This document shows positions 8,820-50,774 of a stretch of 51,614 nt of DNA, one piece after another. Both the position numbers and the translations under genes were made by a program. The stretch spans positions 1 through 51,614 of the forward strand of contig JAJYLE010000002.1 of NCBI GenBank assembly GCA_021788025.1, in the 5' to 3' direction. Below the pieces are notes generated by a model. The model had not been told where the DNA came from. It worked only from the letters and a program-made list of their open reading frames with translations, and did no database searches. This DNA comes from Nitrospirota bacterium. GTDB taxonomy: Bacteria > Nitrospirota > Thermodesulfovibrionia > Thermodesulfovibrionales > JdFR-88. How positions within the stretch are numbered: position 1 is the first letter of the stretch; every line of letters starts with the position of its first letter.

Positions 8820-9944
8820 TTATTCCGGCACTGCGTAGGCCTTTATCCTTGCAAGTCTTTTGCCCTTTACCCCAAGTTCCTCAATCCGCCTGATCTTGCC
8901 AAAGCCTCTTGCCTCTATTATTTTCTGCGCCGTATCCGGCCCCAGCCCCGGCACTTTCAGCAGAGCCTCCTTAGTGGCCGTATTTAACCGGACGGGAAAA
9001 AACTCCGGGTGATTGTCCGCCCAGACCTCTTTGGGGTCCTTGTCCATACTCAGGTTGCCGTCCGGGCCAAACAGGATATCGTCTTTTTTAAAGCCGTATT
9101 TGCGGCAAAGGAAATCGGCCTGGTAAAGGCGGTGCTCGCGAACAAGCGCATCGTTCTTCCGCGGCGCAAATGGTTTCATCTCGCCTGGTATATCCGGCTC
9201 CCCAAGGCCGCGCTGATACGCGGAGAAATAGACCCGTTTGAAATTCATCTCCCCGTAAAGGCTGTACATGGAGCCCACTATCTCGTAGTCCGTTTCGTCA
9301 GACGCGCCCACTATGAACTGCGTGGTGCATTTGACGCGCTGGTACCGCCTGCCCCGCGCGGTAAGCCCTCCCATAAGACGGATTGGCCTTATTATGTCCG
9401 TCAGGTAATCCTTGCCGGCCGAAATCCTGTCCGAGTGTTTTTTGCCGGGCGTTTCGATATTCAGGGAAACGGCTGTGGCAAGCGATAGTGAATCCTCTAT
9501 GGCGGCATCGGAGGCGCCGGGTATTACTTTAAGATGTATATATCCCTTGAAGCCGTAACCGTACCTGAGTATCCTTGCGGCGGCGTTTATCCTGTCCATG
9601 GTGGCATCGGCGCTGCCCATTATGCCGGAACTGAGGAACAGGCCAAAGGCCATCCGCCTTTCGTAATACTGCATGAACACGCGGGCCACTTCATCGGGGG
9701 CAAGCGTGCACCTTCTTATGTCCGTTTTGGCCCTTAGCGGGCAGTATTTGCATCCGCCGGAGCAGGCGTTTGAAAGCAGGGTTTTAAGAAGGATTGTCTG
9801 TCCGCCGCCGGGCAAGGCAACAGGGTACAGCCATTTGCCATCCAGCCCGCGCTTCCTATGGCCGGTTTTGGTGGTGCCGCAGGCGCATGCAAGATCATAC
9901 TGGGAATCGGCGGAAAGGATTTTAAGCTTCTCTACTGTGTCCAT
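8820..9944 (-). CDS. Putative DNA modification/repair radical SAM protein with C-terminal helix-hairpin-helix
   Basis: MDTVEKLKILSADSQYDLACACG..., radical SAM triad CSGGCKYC and C-terminal HhH LLKVPGLGPDTAQKIIEARGF. Start is at Met 9944. The track ORF runs to 10160 through low-complexity sequence. Confidence 0.8.
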   Translation of the reverse strand: MDTVEKLKILSADSQYDLACACGTTKTGHRKRGLDGKWLYPVALPGGGQTILLKTLLSNACSGGCKYCPLRAKTDIRRCTLAPDEVARVFMQYYERRMAFGLFLSSGIMGSADATMDRINAAARILRYGYGFKGYIHLKVIPGASDAAIEDSLSLATAVSLNIETPGKKHSDRISAGKDYLTDIIRPIRLMGGLTARGRRYQRVKCTTQFIVGASDETDYEIVGSMYSLYGEMNFKRVYFSAYQRGLGEPDIPGEMKPFAPRKNDALVREHRLYQADFLCRKYGFKKDDILFGPDGNLSMDKDPKEVWADNHPEFFPVRLNTATKEALLKVPGLGPDTAQKIIEARGFGKIRRIEELGVKGKRLARIKAYAVPE

Positions 9945-10111
9945 AGGCAAAACCGCGAAAATTATATCATATATGCTTATGATAAAAAAAAGGTAAAAGA
10001 AAGAAATGAAGCATATAAGGCCGTATAAATTTATAATGGCTCTGCTGGGTTTCCTGTGGGGCAACTTTATTTGCGGCGTTCGCCGGTATGCCTGAATCTG
10101 CCCGTTTCGTT

Positions 10112-10175
10112 CAAAATCAACCCGAAAGGCCGCTAAAAAAGAAATCCCTTTTGTCCACAAGAAAGCCTGAAGAGC
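10112..10175 (+). repeat. Copy B of the ~64-bp imperfect direct repeat
   Basis: See copy A. Both copies have the same orientation and lie on either side of the radical SAM gene. Confidence 0.8.
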
Positions 10176-15109: not shown

Positions 15110-16057
15110 TCAGCTTCCCCAGTCGTACTTCCTTCTCTTCCTGTGCGAGATGTATTTTTCCGCCGAAAGGGCGGCAGCGGCCCCGTTGGCTGCGGCTATC
15201 ACAACCTGCCTTACTTCCACGCAGGTAACGTCGCCCGCGCCGAAGACGCCGGGGATGGATGTCTCCATCATTCTGTTGGTTACTATGCAGTCCGCCTCGG
15301 AAAGCTCCACGCCGCCGGCCAGGAAATCCGTTATCGGACGGCTGCCGTGGAGGTACACGAACACGCCGGACACGTCCAGGTTGGACGTCTGCTTGTCAGG
15401 GCCGGCCATGACCACCCTGTCCACGGTATCATTGCCCTCGATGGCCATAACGGTAGTGCCTTTAATCACCTTCATCACTGCGGACTGAAATGCCGGGTTT
15501 TCCCCGCCGCCGGGCAGCTTGTCCTGCGGGCAGATTACGTAAACTTCGGAGCACGTCCTGGAAAGATATTCAGCCTCTTTGAACGCCTCTTCAGAGCCGC
15601 CAATTACGCATACGCGCTTGCCCTTGAAGAATGCCGCGTCGCATACGGCGCAATAGCTTACGCCCCTGCCTAAAAACTCCGCCTCGCCTTTAATGGAGGG
15701 CTTCCGGCCCATTGATCCGGTTGCGATTACGATCGTTTTGCCGCTGTAATTCTTGTCCATGGTGAAGGCCTCTTTTACGTTGCCGCCGATATTTACGCCA
15801 ATAACCTGCGCCTCAAGATATTCCGCGCCGAAACTGATGGCCTGGTCCCTGAACATATCCAGAAGCTCTTTGCCCGAAAGCGGCTTATTGCACATGCCAG
15901 GATAGTTTTCTATCTTGTGGGCAAAGGCCAGCGCGCCAGCTGTTCTGGATTTATCCAGCACAAGGGTTGAAAGCCCCGCACGCGCCGCGTACTGGGCGGC
16001 GGAAAGCCCTGCCGGTCCGCCGCCTATGATAAGCACGTCATAAAGTTTTTCTTCCAT
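15110..16057 (-). CDS. trxB: Thioredoxin-disulfide reductase-like FAD/NAD(P)H flavoprotein
   Basis: YDVLIIGGGPAGLSAAQYAARAG, redox CAVCD motif, second dinucleotide fold VCVIGGSEEA and C-terminal GVFGAGD. A GGGAG SD lies in the 16-nt gap after mqnC. Confidence 0.8.
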   Translation of the reverse strand: MEEKLYDVLIIGGGPAGLSAAQYAARAGLSTLVLDKSRTAGALAFAHKIENYPGMCNKPLSGKELLDMFRDQAISFGAEYLEAQVIGVNIGGNVKEAFTMDKNYSGKTIVIATGSMGRKPSIKGEAEFLGRGVSYCAVCDAAFFKGKRVCVIGGSEEAFKEAEYLSRTCSEVYVICPQDKLPGGGENPAFQSAVMKVIKGTTVMAIEGNDTVDRVVMAGPDKQTSNLDVSGVFVYLHGSRPITDFLAGGVELSEADCIVTNRMMETSIPGVFGAGDVTCVEVRQVVIAAANGAAAALSAEKYISHRKRRKYDWGS

Positions 16058-16073: not shown

Positions 16074-17105
16074 TTAAAAGTATTTTAGAATATTATACAG
16101 TGTGTCCCTCTGGGCGGGCCTGAACCCGGCCGCCTTTATGCCGTGTATGATATCGTCCTTGGAAACCCTGTATTTCACGCCCGCGGATGCCACCACGTTC
16201 TCCTCTATCATCGTGGAGCCGAAGTCGTTGGCGCCGAACCTCAGGGCAACCTGCGCCATCTTCAGCCCTTGCGTAACCCATGAGGCCTGGATATTTTTTA
16301 TGTTGTCCAGGTATATCCGGCATACCGCAAGCACCCGCAGATAATCCACGCCGGTAGCAGGCGCAATTCCGCCCATTTTAGTATTGCCAGGCTGGAAGCT
16401 CCATGGGATAAACGCGGTAAACCCTCCCGTTTCGTCCTGGAGCGCCCTTACGGCATCCAGGTGGGCGATTATGTCTTCTGCAGACTCCGACGCGCCAAAC
16501 ATCATGGTGGCCGTGGTCCTCATGCCCGCCCTGTGGGCCTCGCGCATTACATTAAGCCATTGCTTGGCGCCTATCTTTTCCGGGCTGATTTTTTTGCGCA
16601 CCCTGTCCGAAAGTATTTCCGCGCCGCCGCCCGGAACGGAATCCAGCCCGGCTGCGCGCAGGATTCCAAGCGCCTCCCGGATGGTTATGTGGTTTTGCCG
16701 CGCAATGAACTCGATCTCCGGCGGGGAGAAGCCGTGTATGCGTATCGACGGAAACGCTCTTTTTATCCCGGCGAGCATGCCGGTGTAAAACCCCATCGGC
16801 AACTGCGGATTAAGCCCGCCCTGAAGAAGTATCTGCGTCCCGCCCAGTGCGATGGTCTCTTCTATCTTGCTTGCAAGTTCTTCTTTGCTGATTACATAAC
16901 CTTCAGGGCTCCCCTCAGGCCTCCAGAAGGCGCAGAACTTGCAACCGTTTATGCAGACATTGGTGTAATTTATGTTTCTGTCCACAACGAACGTAACCAC
17001 CTTTTTTGGATGCAGTTTTTTCCGCATCCCGTCGGCCAGCTGTCCAAGCTCCAGCAGGTCCGCAGATTCAAGGAGCTTAAGCGCTTTTCCCTTGTTAATC
17101 CTCAT
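16074..17105 (-). CDS. mqnC: Radical SAM futalosine-pathway enzyme, most like cyclic dehypoxanthinyl futalosine synthase
   Basis: VTFVVDRNINYTNVCINGCKFCAF, ILLQGGLNP and IHGFSPPEI match my recollection of the MqnC/CofH-like pattern. MqnC versus MqnE is assigned from memory of motifs only. Confidence 0.75.
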   Translation of the reverse strand: MRINKGKALKLLESADLLELGQLADGMRKKLHPKKVVTFVVDRNINYTNVCINGCKFCAFWRPEGSPEGYVISKEELASKIEETIALGGTQILLQGGLNPQLPMGFYTGMLAGIKRAFPSIRIHGFSPPEIEFIARQNHITIREALGILRAAGLDSVPGGGAEILSDRVRKKISPEKIGAKQWLNVMREAHRAGMRTTATMMFGASESAEDIIAHLDAVRALQDETGGFTAFIPWSFQPGNTKMGGIAPATGVDYLRVLAVCRIYLDNIKNIQASWVTQGLKMAQVALRFGANDFGSTMIEENVVASAGVKYRVSKDDIIHGIKAAGFRPAQRDTLYNILKYF

Positions 17106-18163
17106 CTGGCCATCCTGTTTTTGCTTTTGATTTCCCTGTAAAAAGAGTCCCGCCGCACCGGGATTTTGCCGGCCCTTTCTATAACGGTGCGCAGCCTGTT
17201 CTCAGCGATGGAGCTTTCGGTGGAGGCCCCCGCGCAGTGGGCTATTCTTTCCTCTATCACGGTGCCCTCCAGGTCGTCCGCGCCAAAATAAAGAGCGGTC
17301 TGGGAGAGCTTTTCGCCAAGCATTATCCAGTACGCCTTTATATGCGGGATGTTGTCCAGAAACAGCCTGCTTACGGCTATGCACTTCAGGTCCTCCGTGC
17401 CGGAGGTGTGGTGGCCGCCGATGGACGTCATCGGCTGATAGGGCAGGGCCACAAACGCCTGGAACCCGCCGGTTTCGTCCTGGAGCGCCCTTAATTTTTG
17501 AAGATGGTTTATCCTGTGCGAATAACTTTCAAGATGGCCGTAAAGCATCGTGGCGTTGGTCTTTATGCCCGCATTGTGGGCGGCCCTCATCACCTGAAGC
17601 CATCTTGCGCCAGTCAGTTTTTCCGGGCAGAGTTTTTTGCGCACAGACGGGGCGAATATCTCCGCGCCGCCGCCTGGCATAACATCAAGGCCGCTGCCCT
17701 TCAATTCCTCGAAGACGCGCTCAAACGGCAATCCGCTTGTCTGCTGCATGTAATCCACCTCGGCCGCGGTAAACGCTTTTATCCCTACGCCCTTGAATTC
17801 TTTTTTAATGGACGAAAGAAGCCCGGTGTAATGGGCAAGCGGCCAGTCCGGATGCAGCCCTCCCACTATGTGCACCTCGTCAAACGGCGGTGCTTTTTTA
17901 AGCTTTTTGATTACGTCCTGCACGGTAAGTTCATATGCGCCTTCCTCGCCCCTGGAGCGCGAGAACGCGCAGAACCTGCACCTGTTTATGCATATATTGG
18001 TCGGGTTTATGTGTATGTTGCGGGTATAGAATACCTTTTTGCCGTTCAACTGGCCTGAAAGCCTTGCGGCGCGCCTTCCAATGGAAAAGATGTCGTCAGA
18101 GCGGAACAGCTCCAGCGCTTCTTCAGACGAGATACGTTTTGATTTTTTCAAAATGGCGCGCAC
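17102..18163 (-). CDS. mqnE: Radical SAM futalosine-pathway enzyme, most like aminofutalosine synthase
   Basis: FYTRNIHINPTNICINRCRFCAF, VHIVGGLHP and IKAFTAAEV match my recollection of the MqnE pattern. GTG start at 18163. ATGA overlap with mqnC at 17102-17105. Confidence 0.72.
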   Translation of the reverse strand: MRAILKKSKRISSEEALELFRSDDIFSIGRRAARLSGQLNGKKVFYTRNIHINPTNICINRCRFCAFSRSRGEEGAYELTVQDVIKKLKKAPPFDEVHIVGGLHPDWPLAHYTGLLSSIKKEFKGVGIKAFTAAEVDYMQQTSGLPFERVFEELKGSGLDVMPGGGAEIFAPSVRKKLCPEKLTGARWLQVMRAAHNAGIKTNATMLYGHLESYSHRINHLQKLRALQDETGGFQAFVALPYQPMTSIGGHHTSGTEDLKCIAVSRLFLDNIPHIKAYWIMLGEKLSQTALYFGADDLEGTVIEERIAHCAGASTESSIAENRLRTVIERAGKIPVRRDSFYREIKSKNRMAR

Positions 18164-18223: not shown

Positions 18224-19360
18224 TCAGCCCCTGGCGGGAATTGCGCTTTCCGGCTTTTGTGTTTTGTCCTCGCCGGTTTCAAGGAAGCACTGGGGGTCCT
18301 CCGAAAGAAAATCCCCGCTGCCCGACATGGCAGACCAGGCATACGCCACAGCCCTGCATCCCCTGCAGGAATCCCACTTTGAGCATGCCGCGCACCTGCC
18401 ATTATATCTGGACTTGTCTCTCAGGGCTTCCAGGACCGGGGAGTTGGCCCATATCTCCCTTATGGAGTCTTCCCTTATATTGCCAAGCGGCACCGGCAAG
18501 CGCCTGCATGGGGTAACCGTGCCGTCGGCTTGTATAGTCAGCCCGAACAATCCGGCAGAGCATCCCCCGGGCAAACAGCAGCCCGCGTCCGCAGAAAATT
18601 TCATCTGGGATGCAATAGGGTCCCCGGTAACTATCTCCAGCCCGTCAATTTTCATGGACATCAGTTTTTCATACATGCTTTTCATCCGTTCCGGAGAAAG
18701 CATATGGTTATGAAGCGCCGCTCCCCTGCCAGAGGGCACCAGCCTGGCAAACCCAAGCCTCTGCACGCCGATGCTCAGAGCCAGTGAAACCATATCGTCG
18801 ATATATTCCGCATTCAGGTCCGAAAGGGTTGCGTTCAGGGTCACAACCAGCCCGGCATCCAGCAGGTTCCTTGCCCCCCATAGCGCCTGAGCCAGGCTGC
18901 CCCGGCCCCGGATCATGTCATGCACATTTTCCGGGCCCTCAACGCTTACCTGAACCCCCTTTACATTGCCCAGTTCGCCAATGGCCTTTGCGCGTTCCGG
19001 GCTGGCCAGCGTGCCGTTGGTAAGCAGGTATACCGGCCATGACCGGCCGGCAAGTTCTTCAAGAACTTTCATCAGGTCACGCCTGACAAGGGGCTCGCCG
19101 CCGGAAATATTGAAACTGGGCGCAAACAGCATTCCGCCGGCCTGCGCCCAGCTGTCCAGTGTCTCCGATATCTCGGCTATCGTTGCCTTGATCTCACGAA
19201 GAGAAAGGTCCTTTTTGACGGACCCGTCCTGATAGCAGTGCTTGCACCGCAGATTGCACTTCTCCGTCAGGTGCCACTGGAAAAAAAAGTCGAACCCGGC
19301 CGCCCGACCGGCGGCATCCAGTCCCGCAACTGCGGGATCTAGCTCTTTCAGCTGCTTCAT
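18224..19360 (-). CDS. Radical SAM/SPASM-domain enzyme (peptide-maturase-like)
   Basis: CX3CX2C triad CNLRCKHC and SAM-binding NISGGEPL. The C-terminal SPASM pattern is GCSAGLFGLTIQADGTVTPC, then CAACSKWDSCRGC, then PQC. The track ORF starts at 19369. ATG 19360 gives an ATGA overlap with the upstream mini-ORF. Confidence 0.85.
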   Translation of the reverse strand: MKQLKELDPAVAGLDAAGRAAGFDFFFQWHLTEKCNLRCKHCYQDGSVKKDLSLREIKATIAEISETLDSWAQAGGMLFAPSFNISGGEPLVRRDLMKVLEELAGRSWPVYLLTNGTLASPERAKAIGELGNVKGVQVSVEGPENVHDMIRGRGSLAQALWGARNLLDAGLVVTLNATLSDLNAEYIDDMVSLALSIGVQRLGFARLVPSGRGAALHNHMLSPERMKSMYEKLMSMKIDGLEIVTGDPIASQMKFSADAGCCLPGGCSAGLFGLTIQADGTVTPCRRLPVPLGNIREDSIREIWANSPVLEALRDKSRYNGRCAACSKWDSCRGCRAVAYAWSAMSGSGDFLSEDPQCFLETGEDKTQKPESAIPARG

Positions 19361-19464
19361 TTCCGGCATACTTTCACCGGAGCGCTTTCCACCTTCTTCC
19401 TGAGCGCGGCCCAGAGTTCCGCCTCTTTTTCCAGGGTCTTTTTGTCGTGGATTTTCTTTTTCAT
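19357..19464 (-). CDS. Unannotated 35-aa basic peptide, candidate precursor/partner of the rSAM/SPASM enzyme
   Basis: GGAGGTG (19477-19471), a 6-nt spacer, then ATG 19464. Translation is MKKKIHDKKTLEKEAELWAALRKKVESAPVKVCRK. Its TGA overlaps the enzyme's ATG. It falls below the length cutoff of the ORF track. Confidence 0.5.
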   Translation of the reverse strand: MKKKIHDKKTLEKEAELWAALRKKVESAPVKVCRK

Positions 19465-19592
19465 TCCGTTCACCTCCTTTCCGCAGTTTAGATACATGCT
19501 AGCAACTGTTGCCAGCTTGTCAATATTCTTGCATTACGGTTTGTGAATTGCAACACTAGATTCCCGTCCAATACGGCGATATAGTTTAGGTA

Positions 19593-31357: not shown

Positions 31358-32770
31358 TTAGATGTCGTAGTACAGCATGAACTCGTACGGATGCGGACGA
31401 AGCCTGAGCGCGTCCACTTCGTTCTTTCTCTTGTAAGCCATCCAGGTTTCCAGAGCGTCTTCGGTGAACACGCCGCCTTCCAGGAGGAACTTGTGGTCTT
31501 TTTCCAGATTGTCCATCGCCTGGTCCAGGCTGCCTGGCATCTGCGGCACCTTCTTCAGTTCGGCCGAGGACATTTCGAATATGTCCTTGTCCAGGCTGTT
31601 GCCGGGGTTGATCTTGTTCTTTATGCCATCAATACCTGCCATCAGCATGGCAGAGAAGGCCAGGTACGGGTTGCAGGACGGATCCGGGAAGCGGACCTCT
31701 ACCCTCTTTGCTTTAGGGTTGTCGGAGTACATCGGTATCCTGACCGCAGCGGAGCGGTTTCTGGCGGAGTAAGCCAGGTTCACAGGGGCCTCATAGCCCG
31801 GCACCAGCCTCTTGTAGGAGTTGGTAGTGGGGTTGGTGATGGCCGCAAGGGCCTGGGCGTGCTTGAGGATGCCGCCGATATAGTGAAGCGCCATCTCGCT
31901 AAGCCCGGCGTATTCCTTGCCGGCAAAGAGGGGCTTGCCGCCCTTCCAGAGGCTCTGGTGAACGTGCATGCCGGAGCCGTTGTCGCCGAAGATGGGCTTG
32001 GGCATAAAGGTTGCCGTTTTACCGTTCTTTACGGCCACGTTCTTGATTATGTACTTGAACAGAAGCAGGTTGTCGGCCATCTTTACAATCGGGCTGAAAC
32101 GCATGTCGATCTCGCCCTGCCCGGCGGTGGCAACCTCGTGATGCTGGGCCTCCACCTGGATGCCGCACTGCTGCATCATGGCAACCATCTCGGCCCTCAG
32201 GTCCTCCTGGCTGTCGGTGGGAGGCACCGGGAAGTAGCCTTCCTTGTACCTGGGCTTGTAGCCAAGGTTCGGGTTCTCTTCCCTGCCGGAGTTCCAGATG
32301 CCTTCCTTGGAGTCCACAAAGAAATAGCCGCTGTGCTGGTTCTGGTCGTACCGGACATCGTCAAATATGAAGAACTCAGCTTCCGGGCCGAAAAACGCGG
32401 TATCGGCAATGCCGGTGGACTTGAGATAAGCTGCGGCCTTTTTAGCAATGAAACGCGGGTCCCTGGTGTAAGGCTCCTTGGTAACCGGGTCTATTATGTC
32501 GCAGATCATGCTCAGTGTGGGATATTTGCGGAACGGGTCCATCATTGCGGTATCCGGGTCCGGAACGATGAGCATGTCCGAAGCGTGAATGGCCTGCCAG
32601 CCCCTTATCGAAGAGCCGTCAAAACCGAGGCCGTTTTCAAACGTCTTCTCATCGATTTCCGATACCGGCACGGAAAAATGCTGCCAGATGCCGGGGAAGT
32701 CGATGAACTTCAGGTCCACAAGCATAGTCTTGTTCTGCTTTGCGAAGGCCAATACTTCCTTTGGCGTCAT
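31358..32770 (-). CDS. glnA: Glutamine synthetase type I
   Basis: 470 aa. [35 protein letters not shown] and RIP...KRVE.R.PD..CNPYLA. A GGAGGAG SD is present. Confidence 0.95.
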
Positions 32771-32860
32771 AAGAACTCCTCCATTGAAAAATATATTTCA
32801 GCATCCCGCCGAAATGATTTAAGCTTTTTGGGGCAATCGGCAAACCATTGCCGATTGGCT

Positions 32861-32889
32861 AGTATAAAAAAACACCTCTACCCTGTCAA
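32861..32889 (-). promoter_or_regulatory. Sigma70-like promoter for glnA
   Basis: On the minus strand: TTGACA (32889-32884), a 17-nt spacer, then TATACT (32866-32861). The predicted leader begins with a 9-bp stem-loop (32834-32857). Confidence 0.5.
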
Positions 32890-32941
32890 GGCAAAATTTT
32901 TGTCGGATGCCGCTATTTTTGTTAGCTTTTTCAGCCGTTTT

Positions 32942-34402
32942 CTACTTCACTCCGGCGGCAAGGAATTCAATGAGCAGCCGCACTCCTATGCCGGTTGCGC
33001 CCTTTGGGCTGTAGGGGCGGTCCTTGTCCGTCCATGCTGTGCTTGCGATGTCCAGGTGCGCCCAGGACAAGCCGTTTGCGAACTCCTTCAGGAAGTACCC
33101 CGCGGTAACAAGCGAGCCGCTCCGGCCTCCGGAGTTCTTCAGGTCTGCAACGTCGCTTTTTATGTAGTCCTTATACTCGTCAAAAAGCGGCATGTGCCAT
33201 GTGCGCTCGCCAGTTTTCCTGGATGCATCCTGTATCCGGGCAATAAGGCTATCATCGTTTCCCATAAGGGCCACGGCCTCGCCGCCAAGGGCGATATCGC
33301 ATGCGCCGGTAAGCGTGGCGATGTCTATGACGGCAGCGGGCTCATATTTTTTGGCATATCCCAGGGCATCGGCCAGCACAAGCCTGCCCTCGGCATCGGT
33401 ATTTATTATCTCGATGGTCTTGCCGCTGATGGTCCTGGCTATATCCCCGGGCCTGGTTGCCGTGCCGCCCGGCAGGTTCTCGGTGGCAGGCAGAATCCCG
33501 ATCACATGAAGCGGGAGCTTCATGTCCGATATCGCCTTGAACACCCCAAGCACCGCGCCGCCCCCGGCCATGTCGTATTTCATCTTCTCCATGCCCTCGC
33601 TGGGTTTTATGGAGATGCCGCCGCTGTCGAAGGTGATGGATTTTCCTATAAGGACAACCGGCTTTTTATCCATGCCGCCTTTATATTCCAGGATGATGAA
33701 CTTGGGCGGCTCCATGGAGCCTTTGGAAACAGCTATGAAGGCCCCCATGCCAAGCTTTATGGCTTCGTCTTTTTCTATAACCTGCACCGATACTCCGGCG
33801 CCAATGGATTTGGCAGCCTCAGCAAGCGCCGCAGGGGTCATGTCATTTGCGGGCGTGTTTATGAGGTTGCGTGTGAAACCAACCGCATCCGCGATTATCT
33901 CCGCCTTCTTTACAGGGGCGGCAAGTTCTTTTTCTTTCCTGGACAGGACGGCAAGGCTTTCAAGCCCTTTCTTGTCCTCCTCTTTTTTGTAAACGCCAAA
34001 GCGGTACTGGGCAAGAAGCATTCCCTGGATAAAATCCGCCGGGGTGGCATCCAGCCCATCGAATGTCCGGGTGGAAAGCGCCGCGTTTGCAAGCCTGGTA
34101 TTTTTAAGGTAGCTTGCCGCGGCCCCGCCTGCCTGCCGGATGGTCTCCGGAGTGGCTTTGTCACGCGGGCCAAGCCCGGCAAGCAGCACTGCCGATGCCG
34201 CGATTTTCCCGTAGGTGAAAAGTAGCATCGTCTCTTTGTGCTGCGCCTTGAAATCGCCTTTTTTTATGAGGGCCAGCGGAAGCCCGCCAAGGGCTTCGTT
34301 TATATCACCGAACGGGCCGGCTCCGGTTGACTCGAACAGCGGCAGTATGAGAACGTCACCTTGCGTTTTAATCTCTTCAGTGTCTTTTATATTTATTTGC
34401 AT
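32942..34402 (-). CDS. pepA: Leucyl aminopeptidase (M17)
   Basis: VLIGKSITFDSGGISIKP, NTDAEGRLVLADAL, WAHLDIA. Confidence 0.93.
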   Translation of the reverse strand: MQINIKDTEEIKTQGDVLILPLFESTGAGPFGDINEALGGLPLALIKKGDFKAQHKETMLLFTYGKIAASAVLLAGLGPRDKATPETIRQAGGAAASYLKNTRLANAALSTRTFDGLDATPADFIQGMLLAQYRFGVYKKEEDKKGLESLAVLSRKEKELAAPVKKAEIIADAVGFTRNLINTPANDMTPAALAEAAKSIGAGVSVQVIEKDEAIKLGMGAFIAVSKGSMEPPKFIILEYKGGMDKKPVVLIGKSITFDSGGISIKPSEGMEKMKYDMAGGGAVLGVFKAISDMKLPLHVIGILPATENLPGGTATRPGDIARTISGKTIEIINTDAEGRLVLADALGYAKKYEPAAVIDIATLTGACDIALGGEAVALMGNDDSLIARIQDASRKTGERTWHMPLFDEYKDYIKSDVADLKNSGGRSGSLVTAGYFLKEFANGLSWAHLDIASTAWTDKDRPYSPKGATGIGVRLLIEFLAAGVK

Positions 34403-36438: not shown

Positions 36439-37494
36439 TTATTTATACTTGACTGTGCCGCGGCCTTTCACGGTCTGTCCGATAACGAATGCCGGGTAAC
36501 CGGCCCTTGCCAGCAATGAGACCGTTCTGCCCGCATCGCCGGGCGCAACCGCCATTGCGAAGCCTATACCCATATTGAAGGTTTTTCTCATTTCGCCCAG
36601 CGGCACGCCTCCGGCCTCTTCTATAAGCCTGAATACCGGCGGTACATCCCACGCGCCAGCATCCACAAGCGCGTCAATATTTTTCGGGAGCATGCGGTTA
36701 AGATTGCCGGGCATGCCGCCTCCGGTTATGTGCGCCATCCCTTTTATCTTCACCTTGCCCAATACTGCCTTGAACGCCTTTACATATATCCTGGTTGGGG
36801 TTAGCAGCACTTCCGCCAGGGTTTTATTTCCAGCAGCCCTTATCTTCCTGCGCAGTTTCATGCGCACAGGGGACTTGTCCCCCTCCAGCAGGACTTTCCT
36901 TGCCAGCGAGTAACCGTTTGAGTGCAAGCCGGAAGATGCCAGCCCGATTATCGCATCACCGGGTTTGATGCCGCTTCCGTCTATAATCCTGCCGCGCTCC
37001 ACGGCGCCCACGGCAAACCCGGCCAGGTCGTACTCATCATTCTGATAGAAGCCCGGCATCTCGGCGGTCTCGCCGCCTATAAGCGTGCAGCCCGCTTCAT
37101 TGCACCCGGCCGCTATCCCCTCTATCACCTCCATGGCCTTTTCCGCCTTGAGCCTGCCGGTTGCGAAATAATCCAGGAAGAAGAGCGGCTCCGCCCCGGA
37201 GGTGAGTATGTCGTTTACGCACATGGCTACAAGGTCTATTCCAACCGTGTCATGCCTGCCGGCCAGGAAAGCAACTTTAAGCTTGGTGCCTACGCCATCA
37301 GTGCCGGATACCAGAACGGGGTCCTTGTATTTTTTTGTGTCCAGCCTGAAGAGCGCGCCAAACGGGCCTATGCCCGTAAGCACCTCCTTGCGCATCGTTT
37401 TTTTGGCGATTGGCGCAATCAGCCTTACAAACCTGTCGCCCTCGGCTATGTCCACGCCGGCTTTCTTATAAGTTATTTTTTCTTTTCTTGCCAT
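36439..37494 (-). CDS. purM: Phosphoribosylformylglycinamidine cyclo-ligase (AIR synthetase)
   Basis: YKKAGVDI..G...V...GGF..LF.......PVLVSGTDGVGTKL, DLVAMCVNDI and GLASSG.HSNGYSL. Confidence 0.93.
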   Translation of the reverse strand: MARKEKITYKKAGVDIAEGDRFVRLIAPIAKKTMRKEVLTGIGPFGALFRLDTKKYKDPVLVSGTDGVGTKLKVAFLAGRHDTVGIDLVAMCVNDILTSGAEPLFFLDYFATGRLKAEKAMEVIEGIAAGCNEAGCTLIGGETAEMPGFYQNDEYDLAGFAVGAVERGRIIDGSGIKPGDAIIGLASSGLHSNGYSLARKVLLEGDKSPVRMKLRRKIRAAGNKTLAEVLLTPTRIYVKAFKAVLGKVKIKGMAHITGGGMPGNLNRMLPKNIDALVDAGAWDVPPVFRLIEEAGGVPLGEMRKTFNMGIGFAMAVAPGDAGRTVSLLARAGYPAFVIGQTVKGRGTVKYK

Positions 37495-48376: not shown

Positions 48377-49477
48377 ATGGAAGGCACGTCCGTACTGATA
48401 ACTGGCGGCGCCGGCTTCATAGGCTCCAATCTGGCGGAAAAATTCCTCTCCATGGGACGCCAGGTGCACATTCTCGATAATTTATCCAGGGCCGGTGTTG
48501 AGAGAAACCTGCTCCGGCTCAAGGAAAAATATGGCGGGCTTTTAGGGGTGGATATCGCGGACTTGAGAAACTTCAACTCCTTAAGACGCGCCGTAAGCAG
48601 GGCCGAAGCTGTCTTTCATCTCGCTGCGCAGGTAGCAGTTACCACAAGCCTCACAGACCCGGCGATGGATTTTGAGGTGAACGCCAGGGGCACGCTTAAT
48701 CTGCTGGAGGCGGTGCGGTCGGCCGCTCAGGTTTCAAAAAGGCCAGCTCCACCAATCATATTCACATCCACCAATAAAGTATATGGCGCGCTGGAAGACA
48801 TGCGTCTGGCCGCAAACGGCACAAGGTATTTGCCTGAATCTCCGGAGGTGCTTGCCTTCGGTGTAAACGAAAAAAGGCCGCTCGCTTTCCACAGCCCGTA
48901 TGGTTGCTCAAAAGGGGCGGCGGACCAGTATGTGCTGGATTATGCCAAGACCTTCGGGCTTACGGCGTCCGTTTTCCGCATGAGTTGCATATACGGGCCG
49001 CACCAGATGGGCACGGAGGACCAGGGCTGGGTAGCGCATTTTCTGATAAGCGCAATAGAGGGCCGCGCCATAACCATATACGGAGACGGAAAGCAGGTAA
49101 GGGACGTGCTGTTTGTGGGTGACCTGGTGGACGCCTTCCTGCTTGGGCTGAAGCACATTGAAAAAATATCCGGCAGGGCCTTTAACATTGGAGGCGGGCC
49201 TGGAAACTCCCTGAGCATACTTGAATTCCTGGATCTCATAGAAGAGGTGCGTGGCGAAAGGCCTGAGGTCTTCTTTGCCGGGTGGAGGCGCGCGGACCAG
49301 AAATATTTCATATCGGACACCCGGAATTTTACCAGAGCAACCGGATGGGCACCCAGAACGGACGTAATAACCGGGGTGGGCCGCCTGCACGACTGGCTTA
49401 TGGACAGCCTTGATCACGGCAGCGCCATATTCGCTGAAAAAAAGACAGGGGACGTTTCGGCAGGGGTGGGTCCGTAA
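48377..49477 (+). CDS. NAD-dependent epimerase (CDP-paratose 2-epimerase-like SDR)
   Basis: [50 protein letters not shown]. Start at ATG 48377. The track ORF extension from 48290 overlaps the upstream gene and is G/R-rich. Confidence 0.82.
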   Translation: MEGTSVLITGGAGFIGSNLAEKFLSMGRQVHILDNLSRAGVERNLLRLKEKYGGLLGVDIADLRNFNSLRRAVSRAEAVFHLAAQVAVTTSLTDPAMDFEVNARGTLNLLEAVRSAAQVSKRPAPPIIFTSTNKVYGALEDMRLAANGTRYLPESPEVLAFGVNEKRPLAFHSPYGCSKGAADQYVLDYAKTFGLTASVFRMSCIYGPHQMGTEDQGWVAHFLISAIEGRAITIYGDGKQVRDVLFVGDLVDAFLLGLKHIEKISGRAFNIGGGPGNSLSILEFLDLIEEVRGERPEVFFAGWRRADQKYFISDTRNFTRATGWAPRTDVITGVGRLHDWLMDSLDHGSAIFAEKKTGDVSAGVGP

Positions 49478-49481
49478 CCAT

Positions 49482-50774
49482 ATGAGATTTGCCCTTGTGC
49501 ACCCAAACTGGAGATTCGATGGCAGCGTTTATTTCGGCTGCCGCGAGCCTCATCTCCCGCTTGAACTGGCGTACGCAAAGGCCTGCCTTGAACAAAAAGG
49601 GCATGAGGCCATACTGGTTGACGGCCACATGGAGAGGCTGGGCCCGGTTGAAACAAATGACCGCATAAGGGATTTCAAGCCTGATTTTACCGTGCTTGAG
49701 ACCGCGCCCACATACCTGTTCTGGAGATGCACGCAGCCAGAGCTTAGCATACCCCTGCAACTGGCCAGGGTCATCCGGAAGTACGCAGGCACACTGGTTA
49801 TCGTCGGGCCGCACGCTTCAGCCACGCCCGCGGCTGCCGTGCACAAATTACAAGCGGATGCCGCGTTGCTGGGTGAGTTCGAGGATTCACTTTCCCTCCT
49901 ATGCGACAGGCCGGGCGCGCTGCCCTATTTTTTTGACGCAGCCAACCCGGGGCTTTTTGTGCCTGGCAGTGCCGTCCCGCACGAGGCGGACATCCGGCTT
50001 CTTCCACCGCTGAACTGGCCGGGAAAAACCATTGCCGCGCATAAGCACCACCATCACAGGTTCGACACTCCCGTTCCGGAAGGCCCGGCGGCGGAGATAG
50101 AGGCCTCCAGGGGATGCCCTTTTAAATGCCTTTTCTGCGCCAAGGAGAATTTCAGGAACTCTTACAGAAAACGCCCGCTTGAAAAAGTGCTGGCCGAGAT
50201 AAACAACCTGGCGTCAAAAGGAGCGGCATATCTCTATTTCATAGATGAGATATTCCTGCCGGACAACGCCCTGCTGGACGCCCTTTCGCAAACAGGGCTG
50301 AAATTCGGCATACAGACCAGGATAGACCTGTGGAGCGAGGGCCAGCTTGAGGCGCTGGGCAAGGCGGGGTGCGTTTCGATAGAGGCCGGGGTGGAAAGCA
50401 TAACCGAAACGGGCAGGATGTCGCTTGGCAAACGATGCCGCGCTTCCGGAGAGCAGATATTTGCGCTTTTGACCGCGGCAAAAAGGCACGTGCCTTTTGT
50501 GCAGGCAAACCTTGTGAAATCGAAAGACGACCACCCGGAAGCCGTAGATTCCTGGCGGCGTGAACTTTTAAGGCACGGTGTATGGGCAAACGACCCGGTA
50601 CCTGTGTTCCCGTATCCCGGCTCCCCTGCTTACAAAAAGCTATGGGGTGCGCCAGACGACTGGGCGTGGGAGCGCGCCCACGGACATTACCTGTGCATTT
50701 CGCAAAGGGAAGGGTTAAGCGAGATACAGGAGAAATACCCGGTTGGGCTGGAAAAGCTGGAAGCCGGCCGGTAA
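49482..50774 (+). CDS. B12-binding-domain radical SAM protein
   Basis: The N-terminal Rossmann-like block (MRFALVHPNW...LPLELAYAKACLEQKGHEAILVDGHM) resembles cobalamin-binding rSAM enzymes. Radical SAM triad CPFKCLFC. Start lies 4 nt after the upstream stop. Confidence 0.78.
   Translation: MRFALVHPNWRFDGSVYFGCREPHLPLELAYAKACLEQKGHEAILVDGHMERLGPVETNDRIRDFKPDFTVLETAPTYLFWRCTQPELSIPLQLARVIRKYAGTLVIVGPHASATPAAAVHKLQADAALLGEFEDSLSLLCDRPGALPYFFDAANPGLFVPGSAVPHEADIRLLPPLNWPGKTIAAHKHHHHRFDTPVPEGPAAEIEASRGCPFKCLFCAKENFRNSYRKRPLEKVLAEINNLASKGAAYLYFIDEIFLPDNALLDALSQTGLKFGIQTRIDLWSEGQLEALGKAGCVSIEAGVESITETGRMSLGKRCRASGEQIFALLTAAKRHVPFVQANLVKSKDDHPEAVDSWRRELLRHGVWANDPVPVFPYPGSPAYKKLWGAPDDWAWERAHGHYLCISQREGLSEIQEKYPVGLEKLEAGR

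Follow-up and report, generated by a model that had tools for sequence, protein, structure and literature searches.

A short gene upstream of a radical SAM/SPASM enzyme gene in a Nitrospirota bacterium: a probable two-selenocysteine peptide and its candidate maturase

What does the very short open reading frame (ORF) in front of a radical S-adenosylmethionine (SAM)/SPASM enzyme gene of a Nitrospirota bacterium encode, and is its product the substrate of that enzyme? The pair lies on the minus strand of a 51,614-nucleotide (nt) stretch of contig JAJYLE010000002.1 (assembly GCA_021788025.1), analyzed over its whole length and called here the window. A preliminary description of this DNA had proposed a 35-codon ORF, translationally coupled to the enzyme gene and encoding a peptide with a single cysteine in its C-terminal core. 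Our analysis indicates that this ORF is probably the 5' part of a longer gene, in which two in-frame UGA codons would be read as selenocysteine (Sec, U) to give a 41-residue selenopeptide, with the radical SAM/SPASM enzyme encoded downstream as its partner.

The signals reported for the start of the gene are all present in the window. The Shine-Dalgarno (SD) sequence GGAGGTG (19471..19477, minus strand, as for all features of this locus) precedes ATG 19464 by 6 nt, and the first 35 codons from this ATG translate, as had been given, into MKKKIHDKKTLEKEAELWAALRKKVESAPVKVCRK. Further upstream is a promoter-like site of sigma-70 type (19496..19523) made of TTGACA (19523-19518), a 16-nt spacer and a TG-extended TAGCAT (19501-19496), with 10/12 matches and with counterparts in related loci (TTGACA-N17-TAGCAT in locus L003 and a TTGACA box in L001). 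Since 10 kb contain 108 ORFs of 30 amino acids or more, a single 35-codon ORF is not above chance; the small ORF is significant because it is conserved, not because of its length.

We followed this conservation in 80 genome loci, from Nitrospirota and Desulfobacterota, and five metagenome loci. A profile of the peptide (hidden Markov model) found a homologue on the same strand and upstream of the enzyme in 70 of the 81 evaluable genome loci (E values of 1e-12 to 1e-21), i.e., most orthologous loci retain the mini-ORF. The consensus is MKKtLSkKALvKEAAFWxxLKKAxKENPGKVC[HR]K, with residues E14, C33 and K35 invariant and W18 and P29 nearly so, and a AAGGAGGTGA-type SD sequence stands before the start in essentially all 63 distinct homologues. 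Entropy at the three codon positions is 0.80, 0.84 and 1.25, the third being the most variable, and 31% of the differing codons are synonymous in the peptide frame versus 10-11% in the other two frames, which is a coding signature. The short gene is almost certainly genuine. A profile of the peptide with U written as C matches about 429 database proteins, all unnamed or annotated as hypothetical. Pfam and NCBIfam searches with the peptide (U as C, E up to 10) returned no meaningful match, including with the NCBIfam models of the UXX-star, KCU-star and UxxU selenoprotein families. In the literature, we found no description of the peptide family, only SbtA/SbtM (see below) and general selenoproteome lists. 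One locus has the gene twice (L075:3656-3925 and L075:5607-5729) ahead of only one enzyme gene, and both copies include the TGA pair and the hairpin.

The end of the gene is where our data depart from the preliminary description. All 67 distinct sequences have TGA at codons 35 and 38, two UGAs only 9 nt, or three codons, apart, and a following stop is found at +6 codons in 56 of these sequences and at +7 in 10. This final stop varies (TGA 26, TAG 21, TAA 19), as is usual for an ordinary stop codon, which drifts among TGA, TAA and TAG. Among the matches listed from metagenomes, 104 further distinct sequences have the same TGA pair, with TAA (49), TGA (45) or TAG (9) as final stop, placed at +6 codons in 99 of them. 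The true stop is thus kept at +6 or +7 in all but one of the 67 and all but two of the 104 listed. The tail follows the pattern U-[KSN]-[GSAE]-U-K-[STNGA]-(E/S/T)-stop, with serine written as AGC, AGT, TCA, TCC or TCT and lysine alternating between AAG and AAA. Because invariant TGAs precede a drifting stop, both UGAs look like Sec codons. A variant genetic code is not the explanation, since other genes of the window use TGA as an ordinary stop, the enzyme gene among them.

In the window, the first UGA (UGA1) is at 19359-19357, the second (UGA2) at 19350-19348 and the TAG stop at 19341-19339, so that the putative selenopeptide gene would span 19339..19464, with 41 codons plus stop encoding MKKKIHDKKTLEKEAELWAALRKKVESAPVKVCRK-U-SS-U-KS. 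The product is most likely a 41-residue selenopeptide ending in ...VCRK-U-SS-U-KS, that is, with a C-x-x-U-x-x-U end in place of the single-Cys core proposed earlier. From the conservation of the codon pair and the hairpin described below, we consider a two-Sec selenopeptide very probable. Double selenoproteins of the UxxU type are already known in bacteria (PMC13188914). No Cys homologue appeared among the best 120 of the 429 profile matches, although Cys forms would score highest; these 120 end in ...C[HR]K or differ only by being over-extended at the N-terminus. In the metagenome collection, a degenerate DNA pattern encoding P-G-K-x-C-x-K-Cys-K-x-Cys-K (TGY/TGY) gave 0 matches, versus at least 120 for the same pattern with TGA at both sites. 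The family looks Sec-obligate.

Other readings of the same nucleotides were discarded. A small ORF ('MPQVKGLKEL...') starting at codons 31-32 and overlapping the first TGA has an ATG that is not conserved (GTA, GTG, ATC or CTT precede TGC in relatives), and its downstream 'RYG' similarity switches frames, being the peptide tail, hairpin and terminator read out of frame. A -1 frameshift joining peptide and enzyme lacks a slippery site, and by inspection most relatives have no continuous frame. One public gene call (protein P0208) reads TGA as tryptophan and ends in ...CHKWKSWKSW (...CHKWKSWKSWSCRSATRH), which shows how annotation pipelines mishandle the locus.

Just downstream of the UGAs, 10 nt after UGA2 in nearly all loci, we found a hairpin with a GGUC(N) loop and a 6-8 bp stem, of the kind expected for a selenocysteine insertion sequence (SECIS). 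The loops are GGUCA (21), GGUC (18), GGUCC (7), GGUUC (7) and GGUCG (3), and 45 of 61 sequences have the first loop G at +20/+21, counted from the U of UGA2. The stem covaries among GUUGCC/GGCAAC, GUUGCU/AGCAAC, GCCGCC/GGCGGC, GCUGCC/GGCAGC, GUCGCC/GGCGAC and GUUGCA/UGCAAC, with compensatory changes at 3-4 pairs. An alignment of 41 sequences has 92% of its cells paired and contains 43 double-change cells, a covariation score reached by 0 of 500 shuffles and by no slid control. Published criteria for bacterial SECIS elements (bSECIS) are a loop of 3-9 nt with G in its first two positions, a stem of 4-16 bp, a distance of 16-37 nt from the UGA and a minimum free energy of -7.5 kcal/mol or lower (PMC13188914). 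The hairpin of a typical locus, with a predicted folding energy of about -10 kcal/mol and 16 and 25 nt from the UGAs to the loop, satisfies them for both UGAs.

A close known counterpart is the SECIS of Escherichia coli fdhF, in which the UGA is followed by 11 nt and then GGUUGCAGGUCUGCACC (checked against 5419 genomes). It has the same GGUC apical loop, at positions 22-25, on a 6-7 bp stem, and its helix starts 11 nt after the UGA, versus 10 nt after UGA2 in the family; GTTGCAGGTCTGCA is common to fdhF and to the hairpins of L049 and L058. The family hairpin differs from the fdhF SECIS and the bSECIS consensus in having no bulged U, in lying after the true stop rather than inside the coding sequence, and in having to serve two UGAs. 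In the window it is moreover displaced, and the canonical position is taken by a second hairpin. Counted from the U of UGA2, the helix of this hairpin 1 (CCCGC-AGUU-GCGGG, 19323..19336) starts at +15 and its loop at +20, just as in the conserved GGUC hairpin of typical relatives. It is a candidate SECIS at canonical distance (16 nt to UGA2) and is found in the window and L001 only. Hairpin 2 (GCCGCC-GGUCG-GGCGGC, 19299..19315) is the family-wide covarying SECIS-like hairpin, with its loop at +42 from UGA2. Either of the two might serve SelB in the window. A further, terminator-like hairpin of eight pairs including G-U, followed by T7 (19288-19309), shares sequence with the 3' half of the GGUC hairpin, within the 5' coding part of the radical SAM gene; the two structures may exclude each other, or the terminator-like one may be a chance product of the FDFFF codons.

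The gene next to the peptide (18224..19360) encodes a protein of 378 amino acids from ATG 19360, or 381 from a second in-frame ATG at 19369, and is a radical SAM/SPASM enzyme as had been proposed, with Pfam matches to PF04055 Radical_SAM (2.3e-20) and PF13186 SPASM (7.3e-13) and the motif CNLRCKHC. The three cysteines of the radical SAM CxxxCxxC motif (C38, C42, C45) and seven of the SPASM domain (C270, C288, C326, C329, C335, C338, C361) are invariant in 25 orthologues, and the enzyme fits the SPASM pattern C-x9-15-G-x4-C ... CxxCx5Cx2-3C ... C. It has about 1900 database relatives at E < 1e-20, the best of which (54-77% identical) come from metagenome-assembled genomes of Nitrospirota/Thermodesulfovibrionia and Desulfobacterota. 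No NCBIfam equivalog cutoff is reached: the scores, in bits versus cutoff, are 171/400 for GeoRSP, 168.4/500 for NirJ2, 167.8/500 for AhbD, 140/650 for NirJ1, 134/515 for NirJ, 138/265 for MftC, 127/350 for SbtM, 90/381 for PqqE, 65/300 for SkfB and 65/340 for PapB. The nearest solved structures by sequence are SkfB (6efn, 4.8e-18), PqqE (6c8v, 9e-17), CteB and anSME. By fold, with a predicted model of mean local confidence (pLDDT) 73 and predicted template-modeling (pTM) score 0.76, they are SkfB, SuiB, anSME, PqqE, ChlB and CteB, at TM scores of about 0.6. The nearest solved structures are all modifiers of peptides or proteins.

Peptide and enzyme genes accompany each other in about 85% of cases in both directions. 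Besides the 70 of 81 enzyme loci mentioned above, the enzyme lies downstream of 52 of the 61 metagenome peptide loci, among the matches listed, that have at least 900 nt of downstream sequence (the other nine are orphans), and in three peptide look-ups it was found 160-460 nt downstream at 12 of 12 places, in unrelated genomic contexts. The mini-ORF is thereby tied to one orthologous group of radical SAM/SPASM enzymes. Six orphan selenopeptide genes (L107, L130, L156, L163, L165 and L217) have hairpin and terminator and no enzyme gene in the 2.5-11 kb that follow. In L093, a YceI/pyridine-nucleotide-disulphide-oxidoreductase pair comes after the enzyme; in L156 this pair follows the peptide gene, and the enzyme seems to have been lost from between them by deletion.

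The arrangement in the window is not the usual one. In 113 of 167 distinct loci, a strict test detected a rho-independent terminator 45-54 nt after UGA1 (e.g., L017:5852-5890), with a stem unusually conserved in sequence (GGCAGAUAUGGC...GCCAUAUCUGCC, then a U-run), and in most loci the enzyme begins 130-400 nt downstream, beyond this terminator, using a start of its own (MSItnaHEFF). In most relatives, AAG and AAA are equally frequent as the codon before the TGA. In the clade of the window (L001-L009, L011 and L016) there is no terminator, its interval is gone, and the enzyme frame reaches through the hairpin to an ATG or GTG that overlaps UGA1. The preliminary description had seen a classic ATGA coupling in the overlap of TGA 19359-19357 with ATG 19360; the overlap is there in the window, while most relatives start the enzyme past the terminator. 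The first 25 or so residues of the enzyme, an extension that exists only in this clade and is predicted to be disordered (pLDDT < 50), are encoded by the peptide tail and SECIS region (19286-19360).

In the window, the enzyme gene is followed in the same operon by mqnE, encoding aminofutalosine synthase (17102..18163, minus strand; TIGR03700, 453.5 bits versus a cutoff of 434.55), and then come mqnC, encoding cyclic dehypoxanthinyl futalosine synthase (16074..17105, minus strand; TIGR03699, 512 bits versus 428), and a thioredoxin-reductase (TrxR)-like flavoprotein gene with a CAVC motif (15110..16057, minus strand; TIGR01292, 295 bits versus a TrxB cutoff of 343). This last gene could encode a dedicated reductase. 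The mqnE-mqnC-trxR synteny is restricted to the clade of the window, 12 loci plus the window among 86 sequences. Because they are confined to this clade, the ATGA overlap and the menaquinone neighborhood are derived local features, and we rejected a functional link to menaquinone synthesis as a property of the family.

Taken at the level of the family, the locus suggests the following course of events. Translation would start at ATG 19464 and run through UGA 19359-19357 and UGA 19350-19348, both decoded as Sec by SelB bound to the hairpin or hairpins just downstream, to terminate at TAG 19341-19339. The product would have a lysine-rich helical front (with the conserved KEAxxW) and end in C-x-K-U-x-x-U-K-S. 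Encoded next to it, the radical SAM/SPASM enzyme would be its dedicated partner, most likely a maturase; judging from the linkage and the nearest structures, that it modifies the peptide is likely. The KEAxxW helix might dock on the enzyme and the Cys/Sec triad might ligate an auxiliary [4Fe-4S] cluster, as the substrate Cys does in CteB. The 5'-deoxyadenosyl radical could then form a cross-link from Se or S to a neighboring carbon (a selenoether of sactipeptide or ranthipeptide type) or, alternatively, could oxidize the Sec/Cys side chain in the manner of SbtM or anSME. We rank the selenoether- or thioether-type cross-link first, since links of this type are what most SPASM enzymes acting on Cys-bearing peptides make, and propose it tentatively; side-chain oxidation seems rather unlikely. 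In most relatives, the peptide gene would be a unit of its own (promoter, SD, SECIS and terminator) followed by the enzyme gene, and the clade of the window would have lost the terminator and the enzyme's own 5' end, leaving the enzyme to start at the ATG that overlaps UGA1.

Several observations weigh against a modified selenopeptide. As Cys homologues were not found, the classical proof by Sec/Cys alignment is unavailable. Rfam, at the gathering threshold on 10 loci and in E-value mode on the window and L017, reported no SECIS or riboswitch family, and both UGAs, 9 nt apart, would depend on a single hairpin. In the window, the distances from the UGAs to the conserved hairpin 2 are 38 and 47 nt, more than the usual 16-37 nt, and only the window-specific hairpin 1 is at canonical distance. 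A scan of the 51.6 kb for selenoprotein genes, that is, for split ORFs with an in-frame TGA, and for the Sec machinery revealed neither another selenoprotein gene nor selA, selB, selC, selD, SelD or tRNA-Sec (an ORF with an AIRS domain, 36439-37494, considered as SelD, is PurM). On the maturation side, neither an RRE (recognition element of RiPPs, the peptides made by ribosomes and modified after translation) nor a PqqD domain was found in the enzyme, and 86 loci have no conserved third gene. All-against-all clustering of neighbor ORFs in these loci gave no conserved neighbor except the enzyme, the next clusters comprising at most 14 loci, with no linked protease or exporter; PqqD, MftA/B and PqqA are likewise missing near the loci. 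The RRE/PqqD leader-recognition feature is not universal among radical SAM maturases. Finally, the peptide is missing from 11 enzyme loci (about 14%), which belong to two or three subclades, and about 15% of the peptide genes are orphans. As for the Sec machinery, Nitrospirae have been reported to carry selB/selC (PMC13188914).

Some of these points would be natural if the product were a plain single-Cys peptide of 34-35 residues ending at UGA1 and the hairpin an unrelated mRNA element, serving for example in stabilization, in processing or within the terminator region. Gene callers do stop at UGA1, and the failure to find Cys homologues (in the best 120 of 429 matches and with the metagenome pattern), the silence of Rfam on a SECIS and the distance of the GGUC hairpin from the UGAs in the window agree with such a peptide. 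However, a plain stop would drift like the third stop (26/21/19), yet both TGAs are invariant in the 67 sequences and the 104 listed; serine switches from AGY to TCN and lysine codons change synonymously after each TGA, the true stop is kept at its distance, and the loop, stem and spacing of the hairpin fit the bSECIS consensus and the fdhF SECIS. This makes a plain peptide improbable. A cis-regulatory leader, in which the behavior of ribosomes at the UGAs would reflect how much selenium or Sec-tRNA is available and would control read-through or re-initiation into the enzyme gene while the peptide itself is functionless, would explain why a leader ORF and a structured RNA are followed in 113 of 167 loci by a terminator with so conserved a stem (GGCAGAUAUGGC), why the enzyme AUG overlaps UGA1 in the clade of the window, and why a terminator-like hairpin competes there with the GGUC hairpin. 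Selection nevertheless acts on amino acids across the whole peptide and not just on regulatory codons, orphan peptide genes have nothing downstream to regulate, and an antiterminator pairing for the conserved stem, sought by eye, gave nothing convincing; we regard a leader as very improbable.

The remaining two explanations concern the enzyme. It might act in cofactor biosynthesis (an AhbD-NirJ-like heme enzyme, or one catalyzing an extra step toward menaquinone) and lie next to the small ORF incidentally, given that NirJ2 and AhbD are among its best NCBIfam matches and that mqnE and mqnC follow it in the window. Yet these scores are one third of the cutoffs (168 versus 500) and are equaled by GeoRSP, a family from a peptide system, the mqn synteny concerns a single clade and the linkage to the peptide is family-wide; the enzyme cannot be assigned robustly to any cofactor clade, and such a role is the least credible of those considered here. 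The peptide could also be a free-standing redox or metal selenoprotein (C-x-x-U-x-x-U) that works with the enzyme without being its substrate. It might be an electron donor, a selenium donor or a cluster or metal chaperone, possibly recycled by the TrxR-like flavoprotein encoded in the same operon in the clade of the window. CxxU and UxxU are classic redox and metal motifs of known selenoproteins (PMC13188914), the peptide gene is self-contained in most loci, with its own promoter, SD and terminator, either partner is found alone in some 15% of cases, and neither RRE, protease nor exporter is linked. Against this, two-way adjacency at about 85% with no other conserved neighbor is typical of substrate-maturase pairs such as SCIFF, the nearest solved enzyme structures all modify peptides or proteins, and the TrxR-like gene is missing from most loci. 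A free-standing selenoprotein is, in our estimation, unlikely.

Among known systems, the pair most resembles SbtA/SbtM and the minimal SCIFF/CteB module in its apparent function, and belongs to neither. SbtA/SbtM, a Sec-containing precursor peptide with an SGUG motif and a radical SAM/SPASM enzyme that yield a thio(seleno)oxazole (PMC9204691, PMC11002830), is listed as 'Selenobacteriocin' in a 2026 catalogue of prokaryotic selenoproteins that also contains the UxxU and UXX-star families (PMC13188914), and is the only Sec-containing radical SAM RiPP that we found in the literature. Common to both, if the UGAs are read as proposed here, are a short precursor in which UGA encodes Sec (at least two), a SECIS directly downstream and an adjoining radical SAM/SPASM enzyme, in anaerobic hosts of Desulfobacterota type (PMC9204691, PMC11002830, PMC13188914). 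However, the peptide is unrelated to SbtA, with no TIGR04081 match (E up to 10) and no SGUG or GGUG motif, its own motif being C-x-K-U-x-x-U-K-S at the extreme C-terminus. The enzyme (347-378 amino acids) scores 127 bits against the SbtM model TIGR04082 (cutoff 350), matches only model positions 199-516 of 516, and lacks the region N-terminal to the matched part. The SCIFF/CteB module (Tte1186; ranthipeptides) is likewise a minimal and widely conserved pair, made of a peptide of about 45 amino acids with a C-terminal Cys cluster and a radical SAM/SPASM enzyme, with no linked protease or exporter. A substrate Cys ligates the auxiliary cluster in CteB, which is also among the nearest structures. 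The peptide shows no sequence relation to SCIFF and would use Sec, apparently obligatorily, and the enzyme matches CteB weakly (2e-7) and has no N-terminal RRE-like domain. SkfB and PqqE, which both modify ribosomal peptides, are the best matches by sequence and fold (SkfB 6efn, TM 0.61), but at 19-23% identity, with NCBIfam cutoffs unreached and no PqqD partner here. The small selenoproteins of the UXX-star, KCU-star and UxxU families share with the putative selenopeptide a Sec three residues from the C-terminus and a UxxU pair (PMC13188914) and differ in not being tied to a radical SAM/SPASM enzyme.

Two other radical SAM genes occur in the window. The first (8820-10160, minus strand) is of the DNA repair type linked to uracil-DNA glycosylase (TIGR03916, 277 bits versus a cutoff of 343), with a C-terminal helix-hairpin-helix motif, and the second (49410-50774, plus strand) is of the B12-binding type (TIGR04295, 574 bits) and lies beside sugar epimerase/dehydratase genes. 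A 944-amino acid ORF (31391-34225, plus strand) without Pfam match is antisense to glnA (31358-32770) and pepA (32942-34402) and is almost certainly spurious.

If the selenopeptide is what it appears to be, the locus points to a second family, unrelated to SbtA/SbtM, in hundreds of environmental genomes, where standard annotation truncates the peptide at 34 residues under the label "hypothetical". It would add a new family of bacterial selenoproteins, offer a defined substrate candidate for an uncharacterized SPASM enzyme and provide a natural case of two UGAs, three codons apart, with one E. coli-like SECIS after the stop codon; short TGA-terminated ORFs beside maturases in general deserve a check for recoding. 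We advance, tentatively, that these genes may represent a second, independent class of ribosomal selenium natural products, with a Sec-obligate precursor whose C-x-K-U-x-x-U-K end is altered by a new family of radical SAM/SPASM enzymes. The family would be widespread in anaerobic Nitrospirota and Desulfobacterota, one fdhF-like SECIS after the stop would decode both UGAs, and the product would be a peptide with a selenoether bridge or a Se heterocycle, or else a selenium cofactor or metal ligand derived from the peptide. The apparent restriction of the family to Sec implies that selenium itself is needed for its function, and not merely a thiol-like nucleophile.

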